64,000 nucleotides of DNA, taken from positions 69,936,001-70,000,000 of the forward strand of contig OZ024741.1 in the NCBI GenBank assembly GCA_964016885.1, given 5' to 3'. How positions within the stretch are numbered: the stretch's first letter is position 1; every line of letters starts with the position of its first letter. The position numbers and the translations under genes are program-made. Of the stretch, positions 1 through 61,191 are shown in pieces. The notes under the pieces are model-generated. The model made no database searches and had not been told where the DNA came from. It saw only the letters and a program-made list of their open reading frames with translations. The stretch comes from Eledone cirrhosa. Taxonomy: Eukaryota.

Positions 1-625
1 AAACATGACACTCTGGTATCTCTGGTTGTCGTACCATGAGGTGGCTTTCCCTATCTTATGTCTAGCCCTATCTAAGCTATTCCATGATTTGCTCCTGTAT
101 AATGGGCAAATTCCTTTCATGTCCAGTTCTATGAGGGTCTTATACTTCTCCATGGCTCCTTCGTATACTCTGACCCTGTCTCTTTGGTTGTAGCCAGAGA
201 ACTGCATGCGGTTGATGAAGTGTTGGATGTGTTTTTCCATTTCTGTTGGGTCGCACATGCGGGACACATTCTTCATCACTCGTACTAAATCTGCGATCAG
301 AATATTAAACTTAGCACTACTGGACATTGCTGAGTTTTTGAGTATCAGGTATTTAGAGGCCATGGGTTTAGCATAGTGTGAGTGGAGAATATGGGCTCTC
401 TCGTCTATAGTGCTAATCCAGAGTTCTGTGTCTAATACAGGTAGTTTATTGTTAGGGTGTTTGGAGAGGAAGTCGATAGTTAGAGTTATACTCTGGTGTA
501 TGGAATTAGCTATCTGCTGGATGCTTTCCATCGTGCTATGTTCTAAATCAAACTTGTTAGTGCTCTCTAGTGGGGGTGTTCTTATAACTATATTGATATC
601 GTCTACATAACGAGAGTACATGATG
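1..625 (-). mobile_element. Penelope-like element family A, inverted left arm (RT palm/thumb), continues beyond window start
   Basis: Reverse complement of 625-1100 and near-identical to 27020-27644; contains the RYVDD-coding sequence near 600-612. Confidence 0.9.
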
Positions 626-2159
626 TAACTATCGACTTCCCCTCCAAACACCCTAACAATAAACTACCTGTATTAGACACAGCACTCTGGATTAACACTA
701 TAGACGAGAGAGCCCATATTCTCCACTCACACTATGCTAAACCCATGGCCTCCAATTACCTGATACTCAAAAACTCAGCAATGTCCAGTAGTGCTAAGTT
801 TAATATTCTGATCGCAGATTTGGTACGAGTGATGAAGAATGTGTCCCGCATGTGCGACCCAACAGAAATGGAAAAACACATCCAACACTTCATCAACCGC
901 ATGCAGTTCTCTGGCTACAACCAAAGAGACAGAGTCAGAGTATACGAAGGAGCCATGGAAAAGTATAAGACCCTCATAGAACTGGACATGAAAGGAATTT
1001 GCCCACTATACAGGAGCAAATCATGGAATAGCTTAGATAGGGCTAGACATAAGATAGGGAAAGCCACCTCATGGTACGACAACCAGAGATACCAGAGTGT
1101 CATGTTTGTGGACGCTACCCCTGGAGGGAAATTAGCTAACCAGTGTAGAAAGGCCCTGAGAAAGACCCACTTAAAAATTAAGGTGGTAGAAAAGCCAGGA
1201 ACCACCATAAAATCCCTGATCAGCAAAACCTACCCTTTTAAGAAAACCCACTGCACCAATAGGAAATGTATCATATGTAAGGTAAACCCCCGGATAAACT
1301 GTAAAACTAGAAACGTAGTCTATAGCATAAGATGTACAGAGGGTACTTGCAGAAACATGACAACAACATACATAGGTGAGACAGCTCGTAGCATAAGTGA
1401 AAGGATAGACCAACACTGGGGGGAACTAAAAGGACGAAAAAACGGGTCAGTACTATACGAACATGCTAGACAACAACATGACGGTAACATAGACAACATA
1501 GAAATTAGAATAATATCTAAACATAGAAATGACCCAGCAGATAGGCAAATCAGAGAGGCCAGTGAAGTAGAAATTAGAAGACCAAGACTAAACAGAAAGA
1601 ATGAATGGAATAACAACAACACCCAAACAAACAACACTGACCTAAGAGAAGTATAAATAAGTAAATAAAATAAAATAAATAAATAAATAAATACATACAC
1701 AAGCACAATAACAACAAGCACATAAACACACACTAGTCACCCATCACACAGCAAACAAAACACTATACACACACGCAAACGCATGCGCAAAGAAGACAAA
1801 ATAAAATAAACAAACAAGCAAAGAAATAAATAAATATATAGACAGACTGAATAAAAATGGCGTAGACATACAATACAACAGGAGGAAAAGATAGCATAAA
1901 CTATATATATGTGTTTGTGTCTATATTGTATCTGTATTATTTTTGACCGTCGGTCAGTCAATGGCAACATTGAGGACCGAGTAAGTTAGATTACCGATAT
2001 AAAAGACACAGAAGCGAGAAGCGAAAACCAACCAAACAGTGAGTGTGTTCTGTTATTAATTCTGGCAATATTACACAAATATGACCTCCCCAAGTATAAC
2101 AATATTTGTTTCGACACACGATTTCATATAAAAAACCTCGCAAAACTAATTCATCGCCG

Positions 2160-2160
<1 letters not shown>
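625..2160 (+). mobile_element. Penelope-like element family A, 5'-truncated right arm: RT thumb, Cys linker, GIY-YIG endonuclease (open 625-1656) and 3' non-coding end
   Basis: CTNRKCIICK..C linker, VVYSIRC...YIGETARS..ER..QH and IREA.E...P.LNRK GIY-YIG motifs; ends AATTCATCGCCGC directly before (TA)n. Confidence 0.92.
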
Positions 2161-7430: not shown

Positions 7431-8205
7431 TGTTATTATATATTATAATTACTATTATTATTATTATTATCACTATTATATATATATATGAGAATCCATT
7501 CTTAATCTTTTGAAATTATCCCCTCTTTCATACATCATTGCTAAAAATTACTGCTTTTTTTTTCTATTAATCTTCCCCGTCCATGAGGGAGATTTTCATA
7601 AATTGATCGTATATGACATCCAGTACACCGCTATCGATATTCTAGTATGTCTAGCGACGATGTAGAAATTCCATCGTTGGCTGGGGTGTACATAGGATAT
7701 AAAAGTTATCTAGCTACATACAGATGCTAAATCGATAAGAAAGCACAGAAAAGGCCGAAAGCAAATAATCTAAACATAAGTCAAATATCGACAGCAAAAA
7801 TAGTCTGGGAAATTTCTGAGTAATGTCACTGCAACCTTTCCTCTTGAATACAATAACTTTATTCAAAGAGGTTAAAGCAGATGTAAGACATGTTCAGCTT
7901 AAGGACTGCATGTTGTATTTGTACAGGGTGGACCATGACTTGCAATATATTTGTGAATAAAATACGTTGAACTGAAATTTCAATCTCTTTCTTAATATTC
8001 ACATACACATCTCTCTCTCCCGATTACTTAAATACATGTGTGTCCCCCCCCCCTCTATCTGTATGTTAACTGTCTTATTTTTTCCCTTCTGTTTAATTTT
8101 CTCTCTCTCCTTTTTTCCTTCACCAATAAGTTTATCCCGGGTTCAATCGGGTGTAACCACAGTAAGGTACTCAATACATAGCAGAGTATAAATATTTAAT
8201 ATATA

Positions 8206-8261
<56 letters not shown>

Positions 8262-10149: not shown

Positions 10150-10560
10150 TAAAAAAAGAAAACAAATTAGATTCAGAAGAAAAAATGGAATGTAAAATAA
10201 GAAAATATAAAAAAAAAACAGAAAAGGAAAGGAATGACAAGGGCTATAGTGTCACATAAGAATGGGGAAGGGGAGGAGAGGTTGATTGGGTCTGGGCCTA
10301 GAACGCAGCGGTAATGGAGCTGCGCCCCACAGACAAGACTGCAAAAACCTTCCCGCGGACAATGGCCAGCGTCACCCGCTGCAACAGCCACCCCCACCTC
10401 ACGAGGCTCCTTCTCCAGACGGACCGTCGACGTTCCGATCTTCTGGAGGAGCTCAGCAGTACGGGGTCCAAGTACGCCTGAGGTCTCGACGGCAACCGGT
10501 GCGAAGAGAACATTCTGTCAGCAGGGAGCCTGAGGCGGTAAATTAGTAGGTAGTGAAGGA
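10150..10560 (-). mobile_element. CRE-type LINE 3' fragment (relatives at ~38960-39360 and ~54270-54570)
   Basis: PVAVETSGVLGP and EPREV.WLLQRV.L.IVRG(N/K) resemble the C-terminal P.AVET.G...QR.S.AI.RGNA motifs of CRE-clade elements. Confidence 0.65.
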
Positions 10561-20082: not shown

Positions 20083-20084
<2 letters not shown>

Positions 20085-20927
20085 TATAACTGAATATAAA
20101 AGAAAAACGAAGACAGACATATACATATATGTGTTCAAATCGTAAGGGACCTGATTCGCTAAGGTGAAAAGAATACTAACTATAGACATTGGGATTGCTT
20201 GTCTCAATTTAAGAAAAAATTAAGAAAATAAATACAAACCGGAATTGTGGTAACTACCAATCACCCAGACAACTTGGTGTTGTTTCGCAATATTAATTGT
20301 GAATAGAAATACCAATTCAAGCTCATCAGTGGGTGATGAATTAGTATCCTAGACACTTCTAAGTATATTAAGAAACTAAATAGTGTGCTATATAAAACAG
20401 CGCACATGGCAACCTAGCGCGTCTCACAAGCTTACACCACTAAAAATAGCAGCCAGGTTTATTCGACATTTGAAATAGCTCAACAAATTAACGGAGCCGA
20501 ATATATCAAAGGTATATATTGAGTTAGGAACTCAAAATAGTCTCTTACAACAAAATAGCTCTAAGAAGGAGATATTTCCGAGCCGTATATTATAATAGAA
20601 TATAAAAGAAAAACGAACACAGATATATACATTTGGTAATTCTATTCACAATTAATATTGCGAAACAACACCAAGTTGTCTGGGTGATTGGTAGTTACCA
20701 CAATTCCGGTTTGTATTTATTTTCTTAATTTTTTCTTAAATTGAGACAAGCAAACCCAATGTCTATAGTTAGTATTCTTTTCACCTTAGCGAATCAGGTC
20801 CCTTACGATTTGAACACATATATGTATATGTCTGTCTTCGTTTTTCTTTTATATTCTATTATAATATACGGCTCGGAAATATCTCTTTCTTAGAGCTATT
20901 TTGAGTTCCTAACTCAATATATACCTT

Positions 20928-21650: not shown

Positions 21651-22180
21651 TATATAGTTGTTATATAGTAAGGTGTATTATTGGTTGTGTCATACGGTCC
21701 AATAAACTTTTGTTAGCAATATTAAGTTCTCCACGCTTTTGTATATCTCCAATTCCATTTATGGGAACAGCTAGATGATGTAAAACGGAGTATTTGTATC
21801 AAAAGGAAGATCCGAAGGCATGGTATAAATTTCCAATCATTTTAATCACGACACATGTTTCAATAAGAGATAGATCGATTGTGTAGCCATGATCGATTAT
21901 CACTGATCTCGTCAGGTGAAAATGAATTATCTTCAAATCCTTGATATGAGGGAGAAAATTTAACGATGTTCACTCACTAGAGTTTTGTCCCCCATACTCT
22001 AGTGAGTGAACATCGTTAAATTTTCTCCCTCATATCAAGGATTTGAAGACAATTCATTTTCACCTGACGAGATCAGTGATAATCGATCATGGCCGCACGA
22101 TCGATCTATCTCTTATTGAAACATGTGTCGTGATTAAAATGATTGGAAATTTATACCATGCCTTCGGATCTTTTTGATAT
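21648..22180. mobile_element. Palindromic HHR element, family E
   Basis: Arms ~21797-21983 and ~21996-22180; extra tail on the left; TA flanks. Confidence 0.85.
22060..22133 (+). ncRNA. Hammerhead ribozyme (family E), mirror copy at 21846-21919 (-)
   Basis: UCAC-CUGACGA-long stem II-GAAA-C(AUGU)G-UC^GUGA. Confidence 0.8.
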
Positions 22181-22280: not shown

Positions 22281-22614
22281 ATTTAATATAGAAATGGCTT
22301 CTACGGAACTAGAACTGTTTCATTCATGTATTAAGTTCTTTACTTACTGTGGTTACCTCCATTGAACCCGGGATACACACACACACACACACACACATAT
22401 ATATGTATATATATATATATGTATAAACATATACATATGAGTATATATATATGTGTATGTATGTATATGTATATGTATAAACATATACATATGAGTACAT
22501 ATATATATATACATACATATATATATATGTACTCATATGAATATGTTTATACATATACATATACATACATACACATATATATATAGATATATACTCATAT
22601 GTATATGTTTAAAC

Positions 22615-25715: not shown

Positions 25716-25894
25716 GATGAGATTCTACAGGACTAGAACTGTTTCATTCTTTAGAAATCATCAGGAATGATGATTTCTAAAGAATGAAACAGTTCTAGTC
25801 CTGTAGAATCTCATCTATATTAAAACTTTTATACTCTGCTATGTATTGAGTACCTTATATACTGTGGTTACCTCCTATTCAACCCGGAATAACT

Positions 25895-25900
<6 letters not shown>
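25716..25900. mobile_element. Palindromic HHR element, family C (relatives at ~8135-8200, 14825-14968, 22283-22374, 43910-44038, 60805-60990)
   Basis: Shared GAATGAAACAGTTCTAGTCCTGTAGAA core and ACTGTGGTTACCTCC..AACCCGG tail. Confidence 0.8.
25722..25768 (-). ncRNA. Hammerhead ribozyme (family C)
   Basis: AUUC-CUGAUGA-UUUC(UAAA)GAAU-GAAA-CAG(UUCUAGUC)CUG-UA^GAAU. The plus-strand mirror copy starting at 25768 lacks C3. Confidence 0.75.
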
Positions 25901-25954: not shown

Positions 25955-28583
25955 ATATTTGGGGAGGGTCATATTTGCGTAATATTGCCAGAATTAATAA
26001 CAGAACACACTCACTGTTTGGTTGGTTTTCGCTTCTCGCTGTCTTTTATATATATATATCTGCGATCTAACTTACTCGGTCCTCAATGTTGCCATTGACT
26101 GACCGGCGGTCAAAAATAATGCAGATACAATATAGACAAACACATATATATATAGTTTACATAAATCTTTCGTTGCACATCTGCAACATCGTCAGTGGTG
26201 TTATATTCATTGTTCCTCCTGTTGTGTTGTATGTCTACGCCATTTTTTTTTTTGTTCAGTCTGTCTATATATTTATTTATTTATTTGCTTGTCTGTTTAT
26301 CTTATTTTATTTTGTCTTCTTTGCGCATGCGTTTGCGTGTGTGTATAGTGTTATGTGTGATGTGTGACTAGTGTGTATAGTGTTGTGTCTGCTGGGTGAC
26401 TAGTGTGTGTTTATGTGCTTGTGTATGTATTTATTTATCTTATTTTATTTAATTTAATTTACTTATTTATTTATACTTCTCTTAGGTCAGTGTTGTTTGT
26501 TTGGGTGTTGTTGTTGTTCCACTCATTCTTTCTGTTTAGCTTTGGTCTTCTAATTTCTATTTCACTGGCCTCTCTGATTTGCCTATCTGCTGGGTCATTC
26601 CTATGTTTAGATATTATTCTAATTTCTATGTTGTCTATGTTACCGTCATGATGTTGTCTAGCATGTTCGTATAGTACTGACCCGTTTTTTCGTCCTTTTA
26701 GTTCCCCCCAGTGTTGGTCTATCCTTTCACCTATGCTACGAGCTGTCTCACCTATGTATGTTGTTGTCGTGTTTCTGCAAGTACCCTCTGTACATCTTAT
26801 GCTATAGACTACGTTTCTAGTTTTACAGTTTATCCGGGGGTTCACCTTACATATGATACATTTCCTATTGGTACAGTGGGTTTTCTTAAAAGGGTAGGTT
26901 TTGCTGATCAGGGATTTTATGGTGGTTCCTGGCTTTTCTACCACCTTTATTTTTAAGTGGGTCTTTCTCAGGGCCTTTCTACACTGGTTAGCTAATTTCC
27001 CTCCAGGGGTGGCGTCCACAAACATGACACTCTGATATCTCTGGTTGTCGTACCATGATGTGGCCTTCCCTATCTTATGTCTAGCCCTATCTAAGCTATT
27101 CCATGATTTGCTCCTGTATAGTGGGCAAATTCCTTTCATGTCCAGTTCTATGAGGGTCTTATACTTTTCCATGGCTCCTTCGTATACTCTGACTCTGTCT
27201 CTTTGGTTGTAGCCAGAGAACTGCATGCGGTTGATGAAGTGTTGGATGTGTCCTTCCATTTCTGTTGGGTCGCACATGCTGGACACATTCTTCATCACTC
27301 GTACCAAATCTGCGATCAGAATATTAAACTTAGCACTACTGGACATTGCTGAGTTTTTGAGTATCAGGTATTTGGAGGCCATGGGTTTAGCATAGTGTGA
27401 GTGGAGAATTTGGGCTCTCTCGTCTATAGTGTTAATCCAGAGTTCTGTGTCTAATACAGGTAGTCTATTGTTAGGGTGTTTGGAAGGGAAGTCTATAGTT
27501 ACAGTTATACTCTGGTGTATGGAATTAGCTATCTGCTGGATGCTTTCCATCGTGCTACGTTCTAAATCAAACTTGTTAGTGCTCTCTAGTGGGGGTGTTC
27601 TTATAACTATATTGATATCGTCTACATAACGAGAGTACATGATGAGGTCTATGGAGCTTTCATTAAGGAGATCTTTAAGTCTCCTTTCCCACCATACCAT
27701 GAAAAGGTTGGCAACATCGCCAGCTATGCTGACGCCGATGGCTGCTCCCTCATTTTGGGTGTAGATTTTCTCATTGAACTTAAATATGTGGCCCTTTAGG
27801 GTAGTTTTGATACTAGCCCCTATTGCATGTGCGACCATTTTTCTTACCTGATCAGTGTTTTGGGGGGTCCGTATAGCTTTGGTCCACCCAATCCACCTTC
27901 CTATGGGAGTCTTTTTAGCCATTGAGGTTATGGTGGGAGGTCTACCTCTTATAGGTCTACTAGGGCAGAAACATCTAAGGTCATGGCTGTCTAGGTAGTC
28001 AGTGTCGTAGGTAAGTCTAAGTAGGAGGCCCAGTTCGTCTGTGTCGACGTCGCAGAACTCCACCTCACTCTCAATGATCATCTCCACACATCTTTTCACA
28101 GCAAAATCAATGTTAATGGATGGGTACAGTGACACCACATCCATACTGCCTATTATGCAGTTGGATAGGTTCCTGTTTTTGTTGCACTCACTGATTCTGC
28201 TGAGGAGGTCCTCTGTACTGTCACATACATCTGGGGACATCTTGATTATGGGGCGTATAACCATTGAGAGGAAGTAGGAGATCCTGTAGTTGCTAGCTAT
28301 ATTAGCTCCGCATACAGGTCTTGTTGGTGGTCCTGTTGTCGGGTCGTCGACTGTCTTGTGGTCTTTGCGGAGCCCATACAAGGGTGGTATGCCATTGTTA
28401 GACGCCTGGAAGTTGTTGGCAGTGCGTCTGCTTGGCTTTAGGATGTCAGTCCACATCATCATGTGAGCGTTGAGGATTTTTTCTCTCCCATCGTGTGTTA
28501 GTTGTGCAACTTCGCTCGTGTTGGTGATGTGGGGTTGCATTGCCTCGATGTAGTTCGGCATGCTATGTACTAATTCATCGCCG

Positions 28584-28584
<1 letters not shown>
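25950..28584 (-). mobile_element. Penelope-like element family A, 5'-truncated copy with inverted 16-nt 3' tip at its 5' junction
   Basis: Same sequence family as 625-2160, flanked by (TA)n on both sides; 28569-28584 equals 2145-2160 in the opposite orientation to the ORF. Confidence 0.93.
26471..28568 (-). CDS. PLE reverse transcriptase plus GIY-YIG endonuclease, uninterrupted but lacking its N-terminus
   Basis: LYGLRKDHK, RPVCG, SMDVVSLYPSI, Q..GAAIG, RYVDD, LPVLD, then the GIY-YIG domain. The first ~30 aa of the track ORF are flank, TA repeat and the inverted tip. Confidence 0.9.
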
Positions 28585-28627
<43 letters not shown>

Positions 28628-28798
28628 GTGGTTGACGGCTGAGAAAAAGAAGTACACAATCCTGAAGTAAAGTTTTAATATTCATTCTAAGTCTTTTTAC
28701 TCTGAAGTTTTGTCTGTTTATCACACGGCACTGTGATAAACAGATGAAGCTCCAGAGTAACGAGACTCACTATTTAGCCTTAATAAGATGAATATCTA

Positions 28799-29184: not shown

Positions 29185-29249
29185 CATGGAACTCTTTTAA
29201 CCATCTTTTGTTCTTATATATTATATATATATATGTATATGTATATGTA

Positions 29250-29647
29250 TATATTGAAAGGATAACAAGGACGATTGGTTACTCCTTCATTACATTTATT
29301 GGTAGGTGACGCGCGTTTCGCCACTGATCAGCTCAAGGTTCGATCTGTATCGATCTTGCCCGACTAAATAATCGGCAGCTCGACGGACCCTTTAAAATGG
29401 TATAAAGGGTCCGTCGAGCTGCCGATTATTGAGTCGAGTAAGATCGATACAGATCGAACCTTGAGCTGATCAGTGGCGAAACGCGCGTCACCTACCAATA
29501 AATGTAATGAAGGAGTAACCAATCGTCCTTGTTATCCTTTCAATATATTACACTCTGTATAGCTCTACACCTCAACACAGAAGTGAACCTAAACATCGAG
29601 TGCTCACCCGGGTGAACCTGCAGTAACTCCAAGTTACACTCCCTACA
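29250..29647. mobile_element. Palindromic element, family F, with HHR 3' half (GAAACGCGCGTC)
   Basis: Arms ~29250-29394 and ~29403-29548, AATAAA after the predicted cleavage site, tail on the right; no intact CUGANGA found. Confidence 0.75.
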
Positions 29648-36892: not shown

Positions 36893-38764
36893 ATGTCCGG
36901 TTTGTTCATTTGTATGAATTCACTAAAATGAACAAACAAGCTTTCATCCATCCTTTTAATAACTCGACACGGGCTTACACATTTCTGCCCAGAAACAACC
37001 ATTCTAAATCACTTACATGTAATAGGGAAGGTGCCAAAGCTGGAAAAACGGGTGCAGCACAATCTGACTCACTTACATGCAATAGGGAAGGTGCCAAAGC
37101 TGGAAAAACGGGTGCAGCACAATCTGACTCACTTACATGCAATAGGGAAGGTGCCAAAGCTGGAAAAACGGGTGCAGCACAATCTGACTCACTTACATGC
37201 AATAGGGAAGGTGCCAAAGCTGGAAAAACGGGTGCAGCACAATCTGACTCACTTACATGCAATAGGGAAGGTGCCAAAGCTGGAAAAACGGGTGCAGCAC
37301 AATCTGACTCACTTACATGCAATAGGGAAGGTGCCAAAGCTGGAAAAACGGGTGCAGCACAATCTGACTCACTTACATGCAATAGGGAAGGTGCCAAAGC
37401 TGGAAAAACGGGTGCAGCACAATCTGACTCACTTACATGCAATAGGGAAGGTGCCAAAGCTGGAAAAACGGGTGCAGCACAATCTGACTCACTTACATGC
37501 AATAGGGAAGGTGCCAAAGCTGGAAAAACAGGTGCAGCACAATCTGACTCACTTACATGCAATAGGGAAGGTGCCAAAGCTGGAAAAACGGGTGCAGCAC
37601 AATCTGACTCACTTACATGCAATAGGGAAGGTGCCAAAGCTGGAAAAACGGGTGCAGCACAATCTGACTCACTTACATGCAATAGGGAAGGTGCCAAAGC
37701 TGGAAAAACGGGTGCAGCACAATCTGACTCACTTACATGCAATAGGGAAGGTGCCAAAGCTGGAAAAACGGGTGCAGCACAATCTGACTCACTTACATGC
37801 AATAGGGAAGGTGCCAAAGCTGGAAAAACGGGTGCAGCACAATCTGACTCACTTACATGCAATAGGGAAGGTGCCAAAGCTGGAAAAACGGGTGCAGCAC
37901 AATCTGACTCACTTACATGCAATAGGGAAGGTGCCAAAGCTGGAAAAACGGGTGCAGCACAATCTGACTCACTTACATGCAATAGGGAAGGTGCCAAAGC
38001 TGGAAAAACGGGTGCAGCACAATCTGACTCACTTACATGCAATAGGGAAGGTGCCAAAGCTGGAAAAACGGGTGCAGCACAATCTGACTCACTTACATGC
38101 AATAGGGAAGGTGCCAAAGCTGGAAAAACGGGTGCAGCACAATCTGACTGACTGTAATTGGGAATGTCGAGCGACAATTGCCACTTCTCTGCTCTCCTAC
38201 GATTGCACAAGCAGCTGGTGATGAAAAATGGAGCTTACACATTAACGTTAAGTGGATTGATAAAGAGAATGCAACACAACGGCAAGCAAAGGCGCACCCC
38301 CACCCCCCGCAAGGCCCTACGTAGCGTCTGGTGGGACTGGAAAGGTTTCATCCACTACGAGCTGCCCTCACCGAACACCAGCATAACTTCTGATATCTAT
38401 TGCCAATAACTGGAAAGATCAGCAGCGAAAGTCACACAGATGCGCCCACCCCATGGTCTTGATCCATTCTTTCATGATAAGGATCGGCCGCATACATCAA
38501 AGATGACCCTTTGAAAAGCTGGTGGAACTAGTTTGGGAGATCCTGCCCCACCCACCCTAATCACCAGACGACCTCACACCTACAGACTATCACCTTTTTA
38601 TCTCAATGAGCAATGTAATGCAAACAAAGACCTTTGCCAATGAATAGCAGTTAAATCAGTGGCTGACGGAATTCTTTGCATCGAAGAGATGGAATCATGT
38701 GCCTACCTAAACGATGGCAGACGGTAATCGCAAAGTCAATAAGAAATTTCTGCCCAACCTAATA
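36893..38764 (+). pseudogene. Mariner (DD34D) transposase relic with 3' TIR
   Basis: HLH.IGKV.KL.KRVQHNLT (WVPHEL linker equivalent), GDEKW, VWWDWKG..YE, HD..RPH, HPP*SPD..PTDYHLF; TIR-like end TTTCTGCCCAACCTAATA. Confidence 0.85.
37009..38149 (+). repeat. 19 x 60-bp tandem repeat inside the mariner relic
   Basis: Units identical except at 37020 and 37530. Confidence 0.97.
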
Positions 38765-39402
38765 TATTCACAACCCATCAGCATAATCGTGATATACACC
38801 CTTAAATAAGTATCGCTGTAAAATATTAAAAATATGGATTATTCGTGTAATGATGGCATTTGTGCCTTATATAGGTCATGCAAGATAACCAACGCATTTA
38901 AAGTGTCTAAATCAATCGTTGAAAATCACTTACAGAATTTGTTTTTATATATATATAGAAATGTTTTTATTCACAGTGGTATAAATAACATTACAAATAT
39001 TGATGAAAATATGAAAAAAAAAGATAAAAACAAAAGTAAGTAATGAACAGAGGTGGTGGGAAAGAAGGGCAGATCTGGCCGTATAGGAAAGTAAAGGAAA
39101 GAAAGAGCAACAGCTATTAGGCCACGGAAGAAAGGGAGAGGGGAGGGGAGAGGGTGACAGGCTCTACGCCAAGGTCGGGGCAGTGTTTCGGTTGTACCCC
39201 GCGGAAAAAATTCCAAAGGCATTTCCGCGGACAATGACCAGTGACACACGCTGCAACAGCCACTCCACCTCGCGAGGCTCCTTCCCCAGACAGGCTGTTG
39301 ACGTTCCGAAACCCCTTCTCCATTCTGTCCGCCGGGGCCGTGGGGAGGCCACCAATATGATTGACTACTGACTTGTCATTTTATCAGTCAGATGTTCTAA
39401 TG

Positions 39403-39439
<37 letters not shown>

Positions 39440-39519
39440 CAAATGAATTGTGGTAAGGAACCAGATGGACCATAACGCACCAGAGTACTCAATACTTAGG
39501 GTAGTAGAGTGGGAAATAG

Positions 39520-40003
39520 GAAAAATAAATAAATAAATATATACACAAGCACAATAACAACAAACACATAAAAACACACACTAATAAACTAAGATAGAAT
39601 ACAATAACGAAAACACAGTAACCCAAACGCGAACACACACCAAACACTATACACACACGCAAATGCATGCGCAGAGAAGAAGACAAAAATAAATAAATAA
39701 ATAAATAGATAAAATAAAAATGGCGTAGATATACATACAATACAACAGGAGGAACATAATAGTACCACTAATGATGTTGCAGATGTGCAACAAAAGAACT
39801 TTGTTAGACTATATATATATGTGTTTATATCTATATTATATCTGTATTTTTGACCGTCGGTCAGTCAATGGTAAACATTGAGGACCAAATGAATTAACTG
39901 TGGAGATATAAAAGATACAGAAGCGAAAACTAACCAAACAGTGAGTGTGTTCTGTTATTATTTCTGGCAATATTATTACAACAATATGACCCTCCCCAAG
40001 TAT

Positions 40004-40010
<7 letters not shown>
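39520..40010 (+). mobile_element. PLE family A 3' non-coding end only
   Basis: Aligns by eye with 1680-2104 and ends at the same point as the copy ending at 25950. Confidence 0.85.
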
Positions 40011-40067
<57 letters not shown>

Positions 40068-42286: not shown

Positions 42287-44037
42287 AAAATGTGAGATCC
42301 TTAGTACAGTTAGGTATATTTGAAAAAAAAGGGAAAAGAATGATTTCACTTGTAGTTCTAAATAATTTGATTTAATTTTATAATTGTTTCTACTTTTTGG
42401 CACAAGGCCAGCAATTATCCCAGTGTATTACTGGTACTTTATTTTATAGACCCCGTAAGGATGAAAGGCAAAGTTAACCTCGGCGGGATTTGAACTCAGA
42501 TCATAAAGGGCTGTAACTCTTTGCTGTAAAGCATGGCGTCCGACCCTCTACCGATACTGCCAATCCACCGCCCTTTTTTTTTCATTATATCAGTGAAGTC
42601 ATTTTTTTTCCAATATATATATATATATATATATAAGCAGTCCGAAGCTTTAAGTCTCCCCGCTGGATATGAAGCCAGTCAACTGCATTCATACATAGAC
42701 AGATACATGCATACATACATACATGCATTCATATATACATTCATACATTCATACATGCATGAATACATACATACATACATACATACATACATACATACAT
42801 ACATACATACATACATACATACATACATACATACATACATACATACATACATACATTCATACATACATACATACATACATACATACATTCATACATACAT
42901 TGGACTGCTATTTCTAGCATATAAAGCGAATTCAAAACGGTTCCGACGTAGCATACTACTTGATCATGTAAATAATTATAATATTGCTTTAATTATTACA
43001 ATTTAAATTCTACGTCAAAATATTTAGTACCTCTACTTTAGATAGTTAAATAATTGTTTCTACTTTTGGCACAAGGCCAGCAATTATCCAGTGTATTACT
43101 GGTACTTTATTTTATCGACCCCATAAGGATGAAAGGCAAAGTTAACCTCGGCGAGATTTGAACTCAGAATGGCAAGGGCCGTAACTCTATGCGTCAAAGC
43201 ATGGCGTCCGACCCTCTACCGATACTGCCAATCCACCGCCATAATATAGCAAAATAGAAGTCACTAATGGACATCTTTAAATAATGTACCGTATTTTTTG
43301 GCCTAATGAACGTCCCATCGTATAAGATGCCTCATGGTTTTCCATGGAAATTTTGAGAAAAAAAGAATTTTAGTACATTTCTTCATAAATCTATTAAGAA
43401 TAATTTCATTGTTTTTACAGAAACTCTTATATAAGTTCAACATCATTTTGCTTATATAAATTGTATTGTATTACTGTATTAGTAATATTAATAGTAATAC
43501 AAACTAAATCTTTTAAAACCATTATTGCCTTCACTCTTCTTTCGGCCTTCCATTGGTGATATGGGCGTATTGGACGCAGCGAAGATTTACAGGAAGAAAG
43601 TGCGCCCAATAGGCCGATATATACAGTAATTGAATTTGAACCATGTATTCTAGTAGGTTTGTTGCAAATGCTGTCCCTTTCTATGTTCGCTTTTTTGTCT
43701 ATATATGTACACACACATACACACACGCGCACACACGCACTCGCTCGCATACATACTCGTATACACACATGTATATAATACATTCTGTATAAGCTATCAA
43801 AGTAGTGGGTAGTTTTGAAAGTTTTAGAAAATGTAGGAATCCCAAACGCAGAAAATAACTGTAAACACTATAAATAATAGCTTAGGAAAATCGGGTAAAA
43901 TATGTCAGATATGATTTCCTTCGAATGAAACAGTTCGAATGAAATAGTCCTGTAGAAGCCATTTCTATATTAAAAATTTATACTCTGCTATGTATTGAGT
44001 ACCTAACTGTGGTTTCCCCCGATTGAACTCGGGATAC

Positions 44038-48937: not shown

Positions 48938-49197
48938 AACGAAGGAGGTGTGGTAAGGAGCCAGATGGACCATAACGCACTCAATACTTAGGGCAGTAGA
49001 GTGGGTAATAGGAAAATGTTTAACCCCGACGGCAGAACTCAAGCCGTTTTGACGGCTATTTCTGGACGCCAGAAATAGCCGTCGAATAACTTTAGCTCTG
49101 CCGTCAGGGTTAACATTTTCCTATTACCCACTCTACTGCTCTAAGTATTGAGTGCGTTATGGTCCATCTGGCTCCTTACCACACCTCCTTCGTTAAT
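48938..49197. mobile_element. Palindromic element, family B (relatives at ~3005-3150, 6215-6400, 30503-30609, 39437-39520)
   Basis: Inverted arms centred ~49068; the family carries GAAACGGC..GCCGTC (HHR stem III plus GUC) and the tail TAAGTATTGAGT..GCGTTATGGTCCA.CTGG. Confidence 0.8.
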
Positions 49198-49271: not shown

Positions 49272-50577
49272 TTTGAGTCTCAGTCATTGATATTAGTTAA
49301 TTGGAAAGTTTGTTGAAATGAATATCAAGCCACTACCTGCAGTCTCAGATATTCAGGACGTATCGGAGTGTTCTTGCTGTTCCCAGCAAGCATGCCTTTT
49401 GAAGTGTTCCAAAAAACGGGGCGGGGCCAATTTTCTTTAACCAACCCTGGAAACTCCTTGAGATAGTACCTAGTGCGCCTATGACAATCGGGACCACTTT
49501 GACCTCATAGCAGTTCCAAATCCTTTTTACCTCCCACTTTAAGTCCTGGTATCGGTTAATTTTCTCCCTCTCCTTCTCTTGCACTCTCGTGTCGAATGGG
49601 CAGGCCACATCCACAATCAGGCACGATGTTTTTTCCTTGTCCAAAACCACCAGGTCAGGTCTATTGTGTTCCAGTTTCTTGTCCGTCTGTATCCTAAAAT
49701 CCCACAGCACCTTCACCGGATCGTTTTCTATCACCGACTCTGGCTTATGCTCATACCACTTCTCAGAATGTGGTAAATTGTTTACTTTGCATAGGTGCCA
49801 GTGGATCACACTGCCCATCACATCATGTCTCCAGCCTTTATAGTGAGTCTGGGCTAGGTGTTTACACTCGGATACAATGTGAGCCACAGTCTCCTCCCTC
49901 CACAGATCCTGCACAGTGGGCTAGCCTCCTCCTTGTAATATGGTGTTTCAGCCACTTCGTTTTGAGGGCATGCTCTTGCGCAGCCTTAGCATTCCTTCTG
50001 TAGCCTTTTTAAGGTCTCCTCTTTTCAACCAGTTCCATGTCTGTGGATCTCTGAATTCCGTTTTCTCAAAGAATGTACTATGAAGGGATTTTTCATGAAG
50101 GCTGCTCTTTCTCCTTGTTGTTATTTCCTCCTTGGACATCCCCTGGTCTATTGTCCTTTCCTTCAGTACAATTCTGGGCATTGGCTCCTTACTATCGGTC
50201 ACGTATTTGTGTAGGTTGTTTTTCTCCATCTGAACACAGTCCTCTATGCTGGTAAAACCTCTTCCACCTTCAGATCTCCTTAAGTAGAGTCTATCGACAT
50301 CACTCCTCTTGTGGAACATGTTATAGATAGCTTCCTAGTCTTCCTAACCGTTTCTTTTTGTTCAGCAACATTCCATCTCAGAATTTCCGCACTGTACCTT
50401 ATAATAGATACAGCTCGGGAATTTACTGCACTTATGGCATTCCTACTGTTCAGATGTGACTTTAATACGCTCCTTACTGTCCGAATGTATTCAGATCTTA
50501 TCAATTCCTTCATTTTTTTGTTCTTGATGTCATCAGCCTCCAGAACACCCAAATACTTGTATCCTTCTTCAGTGTCA

Positions 50578-50578
<1 letters not shown>
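49271..50578 (-). mobile_element. R4/Dong-type LINE, 5'-truncated, frameshifted, with RLE endonuclease
   Basis: YLGV, R.YL.R..GGRG, ETV.HI.S.C, RHD, WDF.IQTD, RPD, DVA.P.D, EK..RY, VPIVIGALG; flanked by (TAA)n on both sides. Confidence 0.85.
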
Positions 50579-50608
<30 letters not shown>

Positions 50609-50840
50609 GTAGTAGTAGTAGTACTAGTAGTATTACGGAGTCGATAAAATAAAGTACCAGTAATGCACTGTGTAATTGCTGGCCTTATGCCTAAAGTAGA
50701 AACAATTATTATTATTATTATTATATTCTGAGTTCAAATCCCGCCGAGGTTAACTTTGCCTTTCATCCTTATGGGGTCGATAAAATAAAGTACCAGTAAT
50801 GCACCGGATAATTGCTGGCCTTGTGCCAAAAGTAGAAACA

Positions 50841-50880
<40 letters not shown>

Positions 50881-50881
<1 letters not shown>

Positions 50882-51412
50882 AGCTGCATTTATCTTGCTT
50901 TATGTTCATACGAGTTATCACCAAGTCACAACCAGTGACCTCAAGAGACAACAAGGTCCGCCATGTTCAAGAAAGAACATACATACTCACACATGCATCT
51001 TTAGTGTTTAGACTTGTGATGTACTTATATTGACAGAATCTTCCTTAGTATATGGGCAGTTCCCATTAGTACTATCTTTTGTATTTCTCCTATACATAGG
51101 AGTTTCTGGGTTTCCTGGGTTTCCGGGTTTCCTGGGATTTGCGATAAGTAATCATTAGACCCCTTAGGTATCATTCCTAGAGCGCCTACAACCACTGGTA
51201 TTGTTTTAGTTCTCAATTTCCACATTTTTCCAATTTCTATCTCCAGGTCCTTATACTTGCTCAATTTTTCAAATGTTTTTATAGATACATTCTTGTCTAT
51301 TGGAACGGACATATCAATTAGCAGGCATACCCTCTTTTTAAAGTCCTTCAATATTATATCAGGTCTATTTGCATCTATTTTTCGGTCTGTTTGGATGCTA
51401 AAGTTCCACAAG

Positions 51413-51413
<1 letters not shown>
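50881..51413 (-). mobile_element. Second R4/Dong-type LINE 3' fragment
   Basis: WNFSIQTD....NRPDI...LIDMSVP.D.N...EKLSKYKDL..E..KMW...PVVVGALG; (TAA)n flanks. Confidence 0.8.
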
Positions 51414-51448
<35 letters not shown>

Positions 51449-51449
51449 T

Positions 51450-51897
51450 GTAGAGGTTATATTTAATTTGTTGGGATACAACAAGCAAAATATTTTTATA
51501 ACTGATATAAAGCACTCAACAAATTATTGGAGTAAATATACAATATATTAACAAATGGAAACTATATTTATAAAACCATATTTATTTCATTATACATATT
51601 TCAAGGGCCACCAAAGCAGATTATGGTGCGCTTTCATCAGCTAAAATATAATATAGATTAGTTTTATAAATAAATATTGACATACCCTGAAAAAATGCAA
51701 CTTTCACGGTTGGTGTCTCCTGGAGACTCCAACCGTGAAAGTTGCATTTTTTCAGGGTATGTCAATATTTATTTATAAAACTAATCTATATTATATTTTA
51801 TCTGATGAAAGCGCACCATAATCTGCTTTGGTGGCCCTTGAAATATGTATAATGAAATAAATATGGTTTTATAAATATAGTTTCCATTTGTTAATAT

Positions 51898-51905
<8 letters not shown>
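51450..51905. mobile_element. Palindromic HHR element, family G
   Basis: Near-perfect ~185-bp arms centred at ~51720; tail on the left. Confidence 0.88.
51795..51858 (+). ncRNA. Hammerhead ribozyme (family G), mirror copy at 51584-51647 (-)
   Basis: AUUUUAU-CUGAUGA-AAG..CUU-GAAA-U(AUGU)A-UA^AUGAAAU. Confidence 0.8.
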
Positions 51906-53310: not shown

Positions 53311-56300
53311 AAGTTATAAAAAGATAGAGTTATAAAAAGGAAGTGATAAAGAGATATAGATGAATAATCGACCTTCTGACGAGGCTGGTACTTTTTTATC
53401 GACTCCGAAAGGATGTAAAACAAAAGTTGACTTCTACGGATAGGAACTCAGAGTATTCTATGTATATAGTGTATATATATTTAGGGTAGTTATCGATGGT
53501 GAATAGATTGGTTGGGGCAATACCGGTCTTCTTTACGTATGCAGTAATCCCGCGCTATATCGCCGATCACTTTTCACGGTCTCGTTACATCGTGGATCTT
53601 TCTTTGGAACGTATCTAATTTCCTATCGCGGTAATACTTGCTACATCGCGGATTTTTCGCTAGAACATATTTTCTTATCGCGGTATGTACGTCTGAATAT
53701 ATATATTAATACAAAATGGTGGGCGAAGAAATGACATATACATAACAAGAAATATGTGTGAGTGTGAGTGTGTGTGTGCACGATCGCCGTAAGATATAGG
53801 TTTTGGGATATTTGACTGCTATTTCTAGCATATAAATTGAATGCCAAAAGGTTCCAATGTAGCATGCTACTTCATCATATAAGTAATTACAATATTACCT
53901 GAGTTATTACAATTTAAATTCTACGACAAATTATTCACTACCTCCACTTTATATATTTAAATAATTGTTATTACTTCTGGCACAAGGCCAGCAATTATCC
54001 AGTACATTACTGTCTGGAAGTATCCATCAAAATATGACAAAGAAAAAAACGGTGACTAGTAAAACTTTTTTAAAAATGTAATTGACTTCGATCGGAGCTA
54101 GTGTAATATCTCGTCTCTATCAAGTTTGGAGAATGTCGGGGAATTTGTGGTAAACTTCAGTAAAATATCGTTTGTGAAATGGATTCATATCAGTGGTTGT
54201 GATCTACTATTTCGTTTTTATTCCATGTTGTAAAATAAAATTACAGACAATAAATCAATTTACAGTTGTATGAATATTATTACAAATATTGATGGAAATA
54301 TGAAATAAAAAAGAAAAAAAGGATTAAAACAAAACCAAGCAACAAACTGAGATGGGAAGGGGGTAAAGAAGAACAGATCCGACTCTATAGCAAAGTAGGA
54401 GAAAGGGTTATAAATGCCATAAATGAGAGGAAAATGATGAGAAAAGCAAGGAATATGAGGCGGTGGAAGAAAGGGAGGATGAAGGGGAGAGGGTGATTGG
54501 ATCTATGCAAAGGCATTTCTGCAGACAATGGCCAGCGACACTCGTTAAAACAGCCACCCCAGACGGGCTGCTGATTTTTCACTTATAGATTATGTCTTTG
54601 GTAACAACTTCAACTTTCCTCCCAACACATTTACACACACACACATACATAACCCATATACAGTCACAGTTCCCACAATTCCCGAGGGAGTCGAAGGAGC
54701 GTTGTGGTGACATAAAGTCCGTTTTGGGCATTTTAAGCCAAGCGGCACCCAACCTTCTCCATGTTTGAACACAGCCGATTTCTTTAAGAGAAAGAGCGAG
54801 AATGAAAGATAGAGAGAAAGAGGGGGATGCAGAACGAGAGAGAACATTAGTGAGAAAGGGAAAGAATAATAGTACTCGACTTTAAAGCAATATCGAAGAA
54901 TATTTTACGACTAGGTCGGGATATATTCGTTAAATGAGAAATCTGTTTACCGACCAATTTGCTTTACGACCTGAACCTAGTCGTTAAGTGAGGAATTGTT
55001 ATACTTGTAAACATTTAATTTCACACTACTGATACGACCCTAAAGAAATTTTAGTTTACTCTAGGTTTATTGTTGCTTTTGTGTTAAAGGGGTATCATTG
55101 ACAATAGCCTTCCTTTGAAGAAAATGAAAATAAATATCTCGTCAGATTCCCGGATTCATTGTGTATAAACATGTGTAGGTTAAGATTAGTGTTAGGATTC
55201 GTAAGTGTTACGGTTAAGGTCACCTCGTTGGTTCACATGCGTGCGTGTATGGGTGTGTATGAGCGGAGAACACAAAATGAATCTGGTGAATCGGAGGAAA
55301 TATTTTCATTTTTTCAAAGGAAATCAATTGTCAATGATGTATATATGGACTCCTTCTAACTTCTGGTACAGTTACAAGGCGCCGTCGTGGGTATTTTAAA
55401 CCTGGTGGTATCCATTCTTCTCCAGGTCTGAAAACAGCCGAAATCTTCCAGAGAAGAGGAATGATAGAGTAATAGAAAGGAAGTGAACAATCAACTTCCT
55501 GACGGAGCTGGTACCTTTTTTATCGACCTCGAAAGGAAGAAAAACAAAAGTTGACTCCACGGATTTGACCTCAGAGCGCAGATAACTTGAACAAATACGA
55601 CAATGTATTCTATCCTACTTTCTAACTATTCGCCGTCCATATTATTAATGACACCATATTGGTTTTTGATTTAGGTACAATATCAACAATGTTTGGGGAG
55701 GGGCAAGTCGATTAAACTGACCCCAGTACATTACTGGTACTTTATTTTATCGACCTCGTTAGGGTGAATGGCAAAGCTAACTTCGACAGGATTTGAACTC
55801 AGATCGTAAAGGGGCGTAACCCTATCCCATAAAGCATGTTGTCCGAGACTCTACGGATACTGCCAATTCACCGGCCTTGTTAATGACACCATATTAAAAT
55901 CAATAATTTCCATTCAGTATGACAAGGTTTTGAATCTTGGAATCTGTTCAGTTGTTTAGATTTGTCTGATAATATAGTTAATTTTTTAACAATAGAAGCT
56001 CAATTCTCTCTACACAAATGACCAATGAAATTTCACATTGAAGTAAAAGCTTGATCTTACAACGACACACCAAACACCAACGCGCCTCGTGTGTGAGGTG
56101 TCTGAAATATCGTTGTTTAGTCTATAGCGATAAAGAGATTAGAGTTAGTGAAGTTTAGGAGGGAACTTCCTCAGATCTGTCAGATAACCTTGATTGTTCA
56201 GATTAGAGTCAAGCCGACAATCCCCGACGGACGCTTATTGTTTGGCTTAACTAAGCAAGTTACTCTAGTCGAATTTGTATGAAATCCATTGTGTGTGCGA

Positions 56301-59578: not shown

Positions 59579-60791
<1,213 letters not shown>

Positions 60792-61191
60792 ATATATATA
60801 ATGTAAGTCCCGGGTTCAGTCGGAGGTAACCACAGTAACTAAGGTACTTAATACATTAGTAAAGTGTAAACATCATGTTTAATATAGAACTGTTTATTCA
60901 AAAGAAATCATCAGGAAAGAAAAGCTCTGATGTTTTCTTTAGAATGAAACAGTTCTAGTCCTGTAGAAGCCATTTCTATATTAAACATTATAAATATATA
61001 TATATATAGTGAACAACACAATATATAACTACTCCATAATATCCTGAAACCTTGGGTAATGGAGTAGTTATATATTGTGTTGTTAACTATCTAATTAAAT
61101 AGCTCTGTTCTACACATAGAGCACTCTTTTTACCCTTGCTTTTTCTTCGGAATTACCTAACACACACACCGACACTCACACACATATATAC

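Follow-up and report, generated by a model that had tools for sequence, protein, structure and literature searches.

In the 64,000-nt stretch of Eledone cirrhosa DNA analysed here (the window), the 3' ends of two different retroelement families are joined head-to-head between two TA tracts. The locus raises the question of whether two elements can take part in one insertion or whether two separate insertions were fused afterwards. Insertions of endonuclease-bearing Penelope-like elements with inverted arms, one-sided tails and (TA)n targets have been described (PMC8557442; PMC3846280), and Arkhipova et al. (2013, PMC3846280) explained the inverted arm by a single template that primes itself. 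How these elements acquire the inverted arm and a tail on one side only is still debated (PMC8557442, PMC11167929). A self-priming fold-back cannot alone yield a pair from two clades, while priming at both DNA ends can. A preliminary description of the locus had proposed that both sides of a break in (TA)n were extended on separate RNA templates and then joined, with palindromic insertions elsewhere as the special case in which both templates come from one family.

Anatomy of the chimeric locus

The reported arrangement, an inverted tailed end of family B fused directly to the 3' end of family A between TA tracts, was confirmed, with the ends of the halves corrected to 39525 (not 39520) for B and 40008 for A. 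The features of the locus and its comparators are as follows.

39308..39406, plus strand: 3' end of family X, another repeat, 5'-truncated; its natural 3' end adjoins the TA tract
39407..39438: (TA)16 tract, read from the sequence; left priming site in the proposed model
39439..39525, minus strand: 3' end of the putatively Hydra-like Penelope-like family B, subfamily B1; full 82-nt tail and first 7 nt of the arm, 5'-truncated
39523..39525: junction, placed by the overlap of the halves; microhomology AAA (3 nt) between the B arm and the (TAAA)n run just past the ORF stop of A
39523..40008, plus strand: Penelope-like family A, 3' UTR up to the tail-less form of its 3' end, as delimited by copy comparison
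39768..39795, plus strand: degenerate hammerhead-like core in A; 2 core positions differ from the intact-looking motif of other copies
40009..40066: (TA)29 tract, read from the sequence; right priming site in the proposed model
571..2160, plus strand: A copy used as comparator, comprising the ORF end, 3' UTR and a 57-nt tail; its partner is an inverted A fragment at 1-625
48939..49193: B palindrome used as comparator, both arms tailed by arm typing, a rare type (4/239)

The two halves have no TA tract between them and overlap by AAA, and both outer ends of the chimera are natural 3' ends with TA flanks. If a variant copy served as the A donor, the junction microhomology would extend to as much as 6 nt. 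The B half shows no difference from its local majority (0/89); the segment 39437-39520 is 100% identical to 6 other B copies and ∼84–86% identical to the B copies at 48949-49016 and 49116-49183, in keeping with the B comparator originally chosen (49115-49195). The A comparator (1680-2104) fared less well: the window A copy at 1668-2102 has 70.6% identity to the A half, with indels, and belongs to a different A subfamily. The A half departs from a leave-one-out majority at 10/473 positions (2.1%, the mean of other copies being 2.7%), with 5/326 in its 3' part, and its nearest genomic copies are 95% identical.

A junction search combined with a two-motif pattern found the exact B/A junction once in the 3.0-Gb genome, and the sole other match (L002/L062; L-numbers denote loci) has a different junction. 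Searching sequencing runs with the locus returned one sample under the same organism label and RAD-seq runs of three others, while four other organisms were matched by small repeat shares only; the RAD-seq runs do not reach the flanks. That the chimera is real follows from the assembly together with recurrence of the class described below.

The left flank gives no indication of how the halves came together. At the point where it ends, 19/19 other copies of family X also diverge, 14/19 of them into a TA run. Because the natural 3' end of X abuts the TA tract, the host tract is the tail or the target of X, and a flank that is itself the natural end of another repeat can neither reveal a deletion nor test former adjacency. 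Judging by an ORF end in L340, X is possibly a LINE with a restriction-like endonuclease. An older repeat family (∼73% identity) directly adjoins the X fragment at 39087-39309 and occurs again at 10220-10438 and 54258-54561. A 5' junction of A at the same (TAAA)n run just past the ORF stop was seen in four independent copies (window 39523-39545, L062 at 1547, L292 and L315), three fused to B and one to a TA tract. The run is possibly a hotspot of truncation or joining.

Families A and B carry motifs of different Penelope-like clades

ORFs of family A lie at 26471-28681 on the minus strand and 571-1656 on the plus strand. The former contains a 696-aa reading with YVDD (26474-28561, minus strand) that matches RVT_1 at E 9e-5, below the Pfam cut-off, and atlas neighbours of the A protein at 0.96–0.97 have RVT_1, HTH_animal and GIY-YIG. 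A reverse transcriptase is followed in the one ORF by a C-terminal GIY-YIG endonuclease; the linker reads CX4CxxC, and two cysteines lie within the core. A CX2-5CxxC linker, a CCHH motif and a C-terminal nuclease define the Neptune or Nematis type (PMC8557442), and A is an endonuclease-bearing Penelope-like element that, by its linker and core motifs, appears to be of that type.

The tail of family B was found at 29 other loci, 7/29 extending into long arms. In five of these 7 (L065, L067, L082, L083 and L086) the end of a GIY-YIG ORF, in sense as oriented, lies 5' of the 3' UTR. The Hydra clade is described as having a CxCX5C linker, CxxC and CxH by the conserved E and N, no two-cysteine CCHH in the core, and a (TA)n target (PMC8557442). 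In L083 the CxCX5C linker and the CxxC and CxH motifs are all present, with one cysteine alone inside the core by eye. The linker and nuclease motifs, read from ORF ends, mark B as a probable Hydra-like Penelope element; internal parts of B were seen as inverted fragments. Across 66 aa the nuclease regions of A and B are 29% identical. Since the centre of B insertions varies and long arms run into a GIY-YIG ORF, B is not a MITE or DNA transposon, and that assignment was rejected.

Each family has fixed 3' ends placed just before a TA in its own sequence: a short end and tails of ∼45–57 nt in A, a short end and an 82-nt tail in B. A hammerhead-like core pattern is present in 5/6 other A copies and not in the chimera copy, while B has only the second half of the core by eye. 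Rfam scans gave no hammerhead among the matches listed, only microsatellite-driven miRNA matches below gathering scores, and the folding of the A motif was not significant (z 0.07–0.47).

Among single-arm A copies in flanks, ∼5/25 genuine ones have their 5' end on non-TA DNA (by eye). A separate family common to L078, L102, L119, L140, L150, L152, L178, L253 and L257 matches A in the last 22–27 nt plus the tail only and differs from it upstream of that stretch; it is possibly a non-autonomous partner or a sister family, as far as the shared end indicates.

Same-family palindromes

To define ordinary insertions, an annotator was run over 282 loci and the window. The 614 distinct chains obtained comprised 246 B/B palindromes, 90 A/A palindromes, 171 single A arms, 76 single B arms and 31 mixed chains. 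B/B and A/A pairs both show the Penelope-like hallmark of a 5'-truncated copy in inverted orientation and a tail on one side. Arm typing found one tailed and one short arm in 234/239 B/B pairs, and in 78/81 A/A pairs by one rule or 71/81 by another; the A/A figure is given as a range because re-typing of A ends by regular expression left 28/81 pairs untyped. Both B arms carried the same subfamily tag in 144/150 classifiable pairs, against 18% under an independent draw, a match that could be due in part to staggered subfamily activity. Rare variants present in both arms were uninformative (B 7 against 3.5 expected, with a maximum of 9; A 2 against 0).

The strict rule of one tailed and one short arm, together with the subfamily match, indicates that palindromes are likely to derive from one RNA read from two start sites and not from two independent templates; one RNA serving both DNA ends is the simplest reading. 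Counts argue the same way. Exact-motif pairs within 500 nt numbered 21,649 B/B and 1,220 A/A genome-wide, from which ∼10,000 B/A pairs would be expected under independent templates, and 10 were found among the matches listed. The proposal that palindromes are the same-family case of two independently chosen templates was therefore not upheld.

In the comparator palindrome at 48939-49193 both arms have the same 7-nt gap relative to other B copies, which suggests one template or arm-to-arm copying. The 5' ends of B palindrome arms cluster 45–70 nt upstream of the short end (166/249 tailed arms and 198/243 short arms). The cluster, which immediately precedes the hammerhead-like half core, is a strong stop or fold-back point.

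Census of cross-family pairs

The count of hetero- against homo-family pairs called for in the preliminary description was carried out by pattern search. We examined the best 100 of 118 matches to a B-tail/A-end pattern, the best 71 of 76 to a short-B/A pattern, the best 49 of 50 to a B-tail/A-motif pattern and the best 80 of 294 to a B-tail/C pattern, C being a third TA-targeting family. The search covered A arms up to ∼700 nt, and fusion classes were assigned by hand. Most matches are separate elements with a TA tract in common, 143 of them A-B neighbours. Clean two-piece cross-family fusions numbered at least 17 (at least 10 B/A and at least 7 B/C) against the 21,649 B/B pairs. The B/A set consists of the chimera locus, L104, L108, L115, L120, L126, L234, L254, L264 and L295, and the B/C set of L358, L381, L387, L401, L411, L418 and L420. 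A tailed B is present in at least 8 clean B/A pairs (∼0.04% of the B/B count) and, by extrapolation, in ∼26 clean B/C pairs (∼0.1%).

Fusions that retain pieces of the inner arms outnumber the clean ones 22 to 17, with at least 22 cases (19 B/A and 3 B/C). The matches listed include 9 three-piece B(-)/B(+)/A(+) fusions, and four pieces are present in L118, L172, L232, L272 and L317. L172 and L317 look like two palindromes minus their shared TA tract; in L317 the tract and both inner ends are gone between a B and an A palindrome. Pairs that were doubtful or were short- or masked-TA neighbours were left out of the fusion classes (L122, L158, L109, L213, L216, L219, L255, L276, L289, L302, L322, L370 and L424).

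Junction microhomology was inspected as well: the AAA at 39523-39525 has counterparts in 0–9 nt of shared bases or short insertions at the other clean junctions. Every fusion junction was found only once, so no chimeric master element is being copied, and propagation of such an element was rejected. The chimera locus itself obeys the rule of one tailed and one tail-less end, while the class does not: the combination occurs in 10/17 clean chimeras against 234/239 palindromes (p 1e-6).

Fused halves are matched in age as a class

The age of each half was estimated as its differences from the majority of its 9 or 15 nearest copies, with and without CpG sites. The test is based on local majorities from ∼2 Mb of DNA, on short halves and on hand-assigned classes. 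Of the 39 fusions, 36 passed the filters (16 clean and 20 with relic arms), and 210 TA-separated neighbours served as controls. The pooled fused pairs gave a deviance of 42.0 on 36 df, where 102 was expected from length-matched TA-separated neighbours (p 0.0003; when 15 copies were used or CpG sites dropped, p was 0.001, 0.006 and 0.016). Divergence was correlated between fused halves (rho 0.47–0.52, p 0.001–0.004) and not between neighbours (rho -0.03 to -0.06), and clearly differing halves were seen in 2–3/36 fused pairs against 40–48/210 neighbours.

The subsets point in the same direction. Clean pairs alone, pooled, lend weaker support (p 0.003, 0.03, 0.02 and 0.21 in four settings), and the relic-bearing class was also age-matched (p 0.013–0.046). 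For B/A, deviance was 8.9 in the 10 clean pairs, compared with 30.2 in neighbours of matched length (p 0.017, or 0.05 when 15 copies were used); the corresponding values for 18 of the 19 relic pairs were 30.3 and 56.8 (p 0.067, or 0.028 when 15 copies were used). The B/C set, gathered later and independent, tended the same way, though not significantly for clean pairs alone (p 0.11 and 0.20; with relics 0.037 and 0.11). The left-out pairs as a group are not age-matched (deviance 29 on 10 df for the B/A 'short TA' pairs). Random fusion of neighbours, whether during the second insertion or afterwards, predicts neighbour-like discordance and the fused halves match, so the class as a whole looks concurrent. 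The chimera locus, with a deviance of 2.4, is among the less concordant clean pairs; its halves (B 0/89, A 10/473) are compatible with a single age, though the match is not close.

Origin of the cross-family pairs

The likeliest origin of the chimera, to which we give somewhat better than even credence, is concurrent priming by the B and A enzymes at (TA)n ends followed by end joining. The GIY-YIG nuclease of one element would cut both strands of a TA tract. Normally one enzyme complex would prime both ends on one RNA, using two start sites, and leave a palindrome with one tailed and one short arm. Rarely, the second end would be taken by an unrelated complex, such that the B and A reverse transcriptases worked almost simultaneously, each on its own (TA)n DNA end; alternatively, two concurrent cuts, in one tract or in two, would be cross-joined with loss of the inner part. 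The 3' ends of the cDNAs would anneal at 0–9 shared bases (3 at the chimera locus), and the two truncated cDNAs would likely be joined by microhomology-mediated end joining. The chimera locus is compatible with one break and with two concurrent breaks alike. Under a concurrent origin, the relic arms call either for a cDNA that partly folded back before it was joined or for two concurrent cuts between which the middle was lost. The local mechanism of the preliminary description, extension on two templates and joining, has in this respect become plausible through class-level support: outward-facing 3' ends, microhomology at the junctions, recurrence of the class, and a smaller age difference between fused halves than between neighbours that share a TA tract.

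The main competitor, which we consider less likely but quite possible, is two successive insertions at one TA tract, the second element inserting with one arm and its 5' end being joined into the first after resection, or the inner arms and shared TA tract being lost later by microhomology deletion. A fusion of neighbouring elements by deletion had been named in the preliminary description as what would overturn its reading, and the pattern does occur. At least 22 fusions hold relic inner arms, among them the four-piece cases, and L317 has lost its TA tract and inner ends. When break positions are set out in a 2x2 table (17/7/10/5; odds ratio 1.2, p 1.0), neither side depends on the other and clean pairs are not in excess, as neighbour deletions would predict. 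Further points against a concurrent origin are the frequency of A-B neighbours with a common TA tract and the single-arm A copies whose 5' end is joined to non-TA DNA. Chimeras resemble neighbours in that their ends pair randomly: where B has a tail, its A partner lacks one in 5/8 clean pairs and in 72/106 TA-sharing neighbours. At the chimera locus the B break falls 7 nt inside the base of the would-be B hairpin, and microhomology deletions of Penelope copies are on record (PMC3846280). However, successive insertions predict unequal ages like those of neighbours, and the fused halves match, the relic-bearing ones included; the reading survives only if fusion needs a very young first element, for example a perfect fragile palindrome. 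If it holds, the chimera locus is an ordinary nested-repeat deletion.

We consider improbable a third reading, in which one enzyme made both halves: having begun reverse transcription on A RNA, it would have switched to an antisense or read-through transcript from a genomic B copy, continued into the TA flank of that copy and annealed there with the second DNA end. Such a jump would account for the 9 three-piece fusions and for short junction microhomology, and template switching is documented for LINE-1 (bioRxiv 10.1101/2025.02.02.635956; PMC11702581), but it leaves the four-piece fusions unexplained, each junction is unique, and the B half should bear the older mutations of a genomic copy. 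It has 0/89 here, and B is not older than A in clean B/A pairs (0.017 vs 0.023). Least credible is an assembly error that misjoined two repeats at an A-rich stretch. In its favour, neither a read nor a contig was seen to span the chimera junction, which is known from the assembly; against an error, the class has at least 39 members on many contigs with varied breakpoints, and non-homologous families are joined at 0–9 shared bases with age-matched halves.

Returning to concurrent priming, the age-matched cross-family pairs and the strict tail rule of palindromes lead to the predictions that one complex normally serves both ends from one RNA and that another enzyme now and then gains use of a free end. 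More broadly, and as a tentative proposal that we place a little short of even, a Penelope-like insertion may leave a break with two open ends, and a reverse transcriptase from an unrelated clade could capture the free end and extend it in the manner of telomerase. The cross-family pairs would then be relics of these captures, and some may record a deletion or rearrangement that joined breaks arising simultaneously in a single germ cell. If concurrent capture is true, these elements leave a free DNA break usable by another element, and if some pairs join distant breaks, they are a source of rearrangement in TA-repeat-rich genomes.

Comparison with known systems

The chimeras share with described Penelope-like insertions (Craig et al. 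2021, PMC8557442; PMC3846280) the head-to-head 5'-truncated arms with 3' ends outward, the (TA)n target, the optional tail and the lack of a visible target duplication. They differ in that their arms come from different clades and in that tail pairing is random in chimeras and strict in palindromes. Opposite-orientation insertions of two RNAs are already known for LINE-1; here they would occur between Penelope families. LINE-1 chimeras of opposite orientation have been explained by priming of both ends, each on a different RNA (bioRxiv 10.1101/2025.02.02.635956), and new insertions of two opposite-orientation transcripts with microhomology have been seen in cells (PMC11702581). As in this twin priming, the pairs described here are oppositely oriented, have microhomology or short insertions at the junction and are rare beside ordinary insertions. 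In LINE-1 chimeras, both RNAs are copied by the same enzyme family, and a single event is proved by target duplications, whereas here two different autonomous enzymes are implied, each arm starts from a natural 3' start site, and any duplication would be hidden in the TA target. Equal age of the parts, as expected of LINE-1-type chimeras, was found at the class level, and the chimera locus is compatible with it. Cross-joined concurrent LINE-1 breaks have also been seen in cells (PMC11702581). They too involve ends of independent concurrent reactions joining with cDNA left at the junction; unlike them, the left flank here ends naturally at TA and gives no adjacency test.

In vitro, purified PAc Poseidon protein cuts and extends both strands, and two RNA start sites define the tail (Frangieh et al. 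2024, PMC11167929). The two or three fixed 3' ends before TA in families A, B and C resemble these start sites. The accessible part of that study concerns one family and has nothing on tailed/tail-less pairing or cross-family joins (PMC11167929). Full-text searches, with most subscription papers outside their scope, returned no report of pairs between Penelope families, and the accessible parts of PMC13282606 and bioRxiv 10.64898/2026.07.22.740005 contain nothing on such fusions.

Family C and other repeats of the window

Family C, the third TA-targeting element, is present at 25716-25895, 43911-44036, 60808-60985, 8127-8206 and 22282-22375. Its hammerhead-like core looks complete by eye, and a 12-nt motif in its tail is shared with B. 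It has three fixed 3' ends, which, as in A and B, lie just before a TA in its own sequence. In L296 (∼1500-1980) a C palindrome is joined to an A arm via short iterated duplications, a C/A join that lies outside the test counts. Palindromic insertions of other families were seen at 20084-20864, 21797-22179, 29249-29548, 51541-51901 and 59583-60577. Other LINE-like ORF fragments, including two nuclease-like C-terminal pieces, occupy 49345-51456 on the minus strand, and 19 near-identical 60-nt units (99% matches) form an array at 37009-38153 with open frames on both strands.
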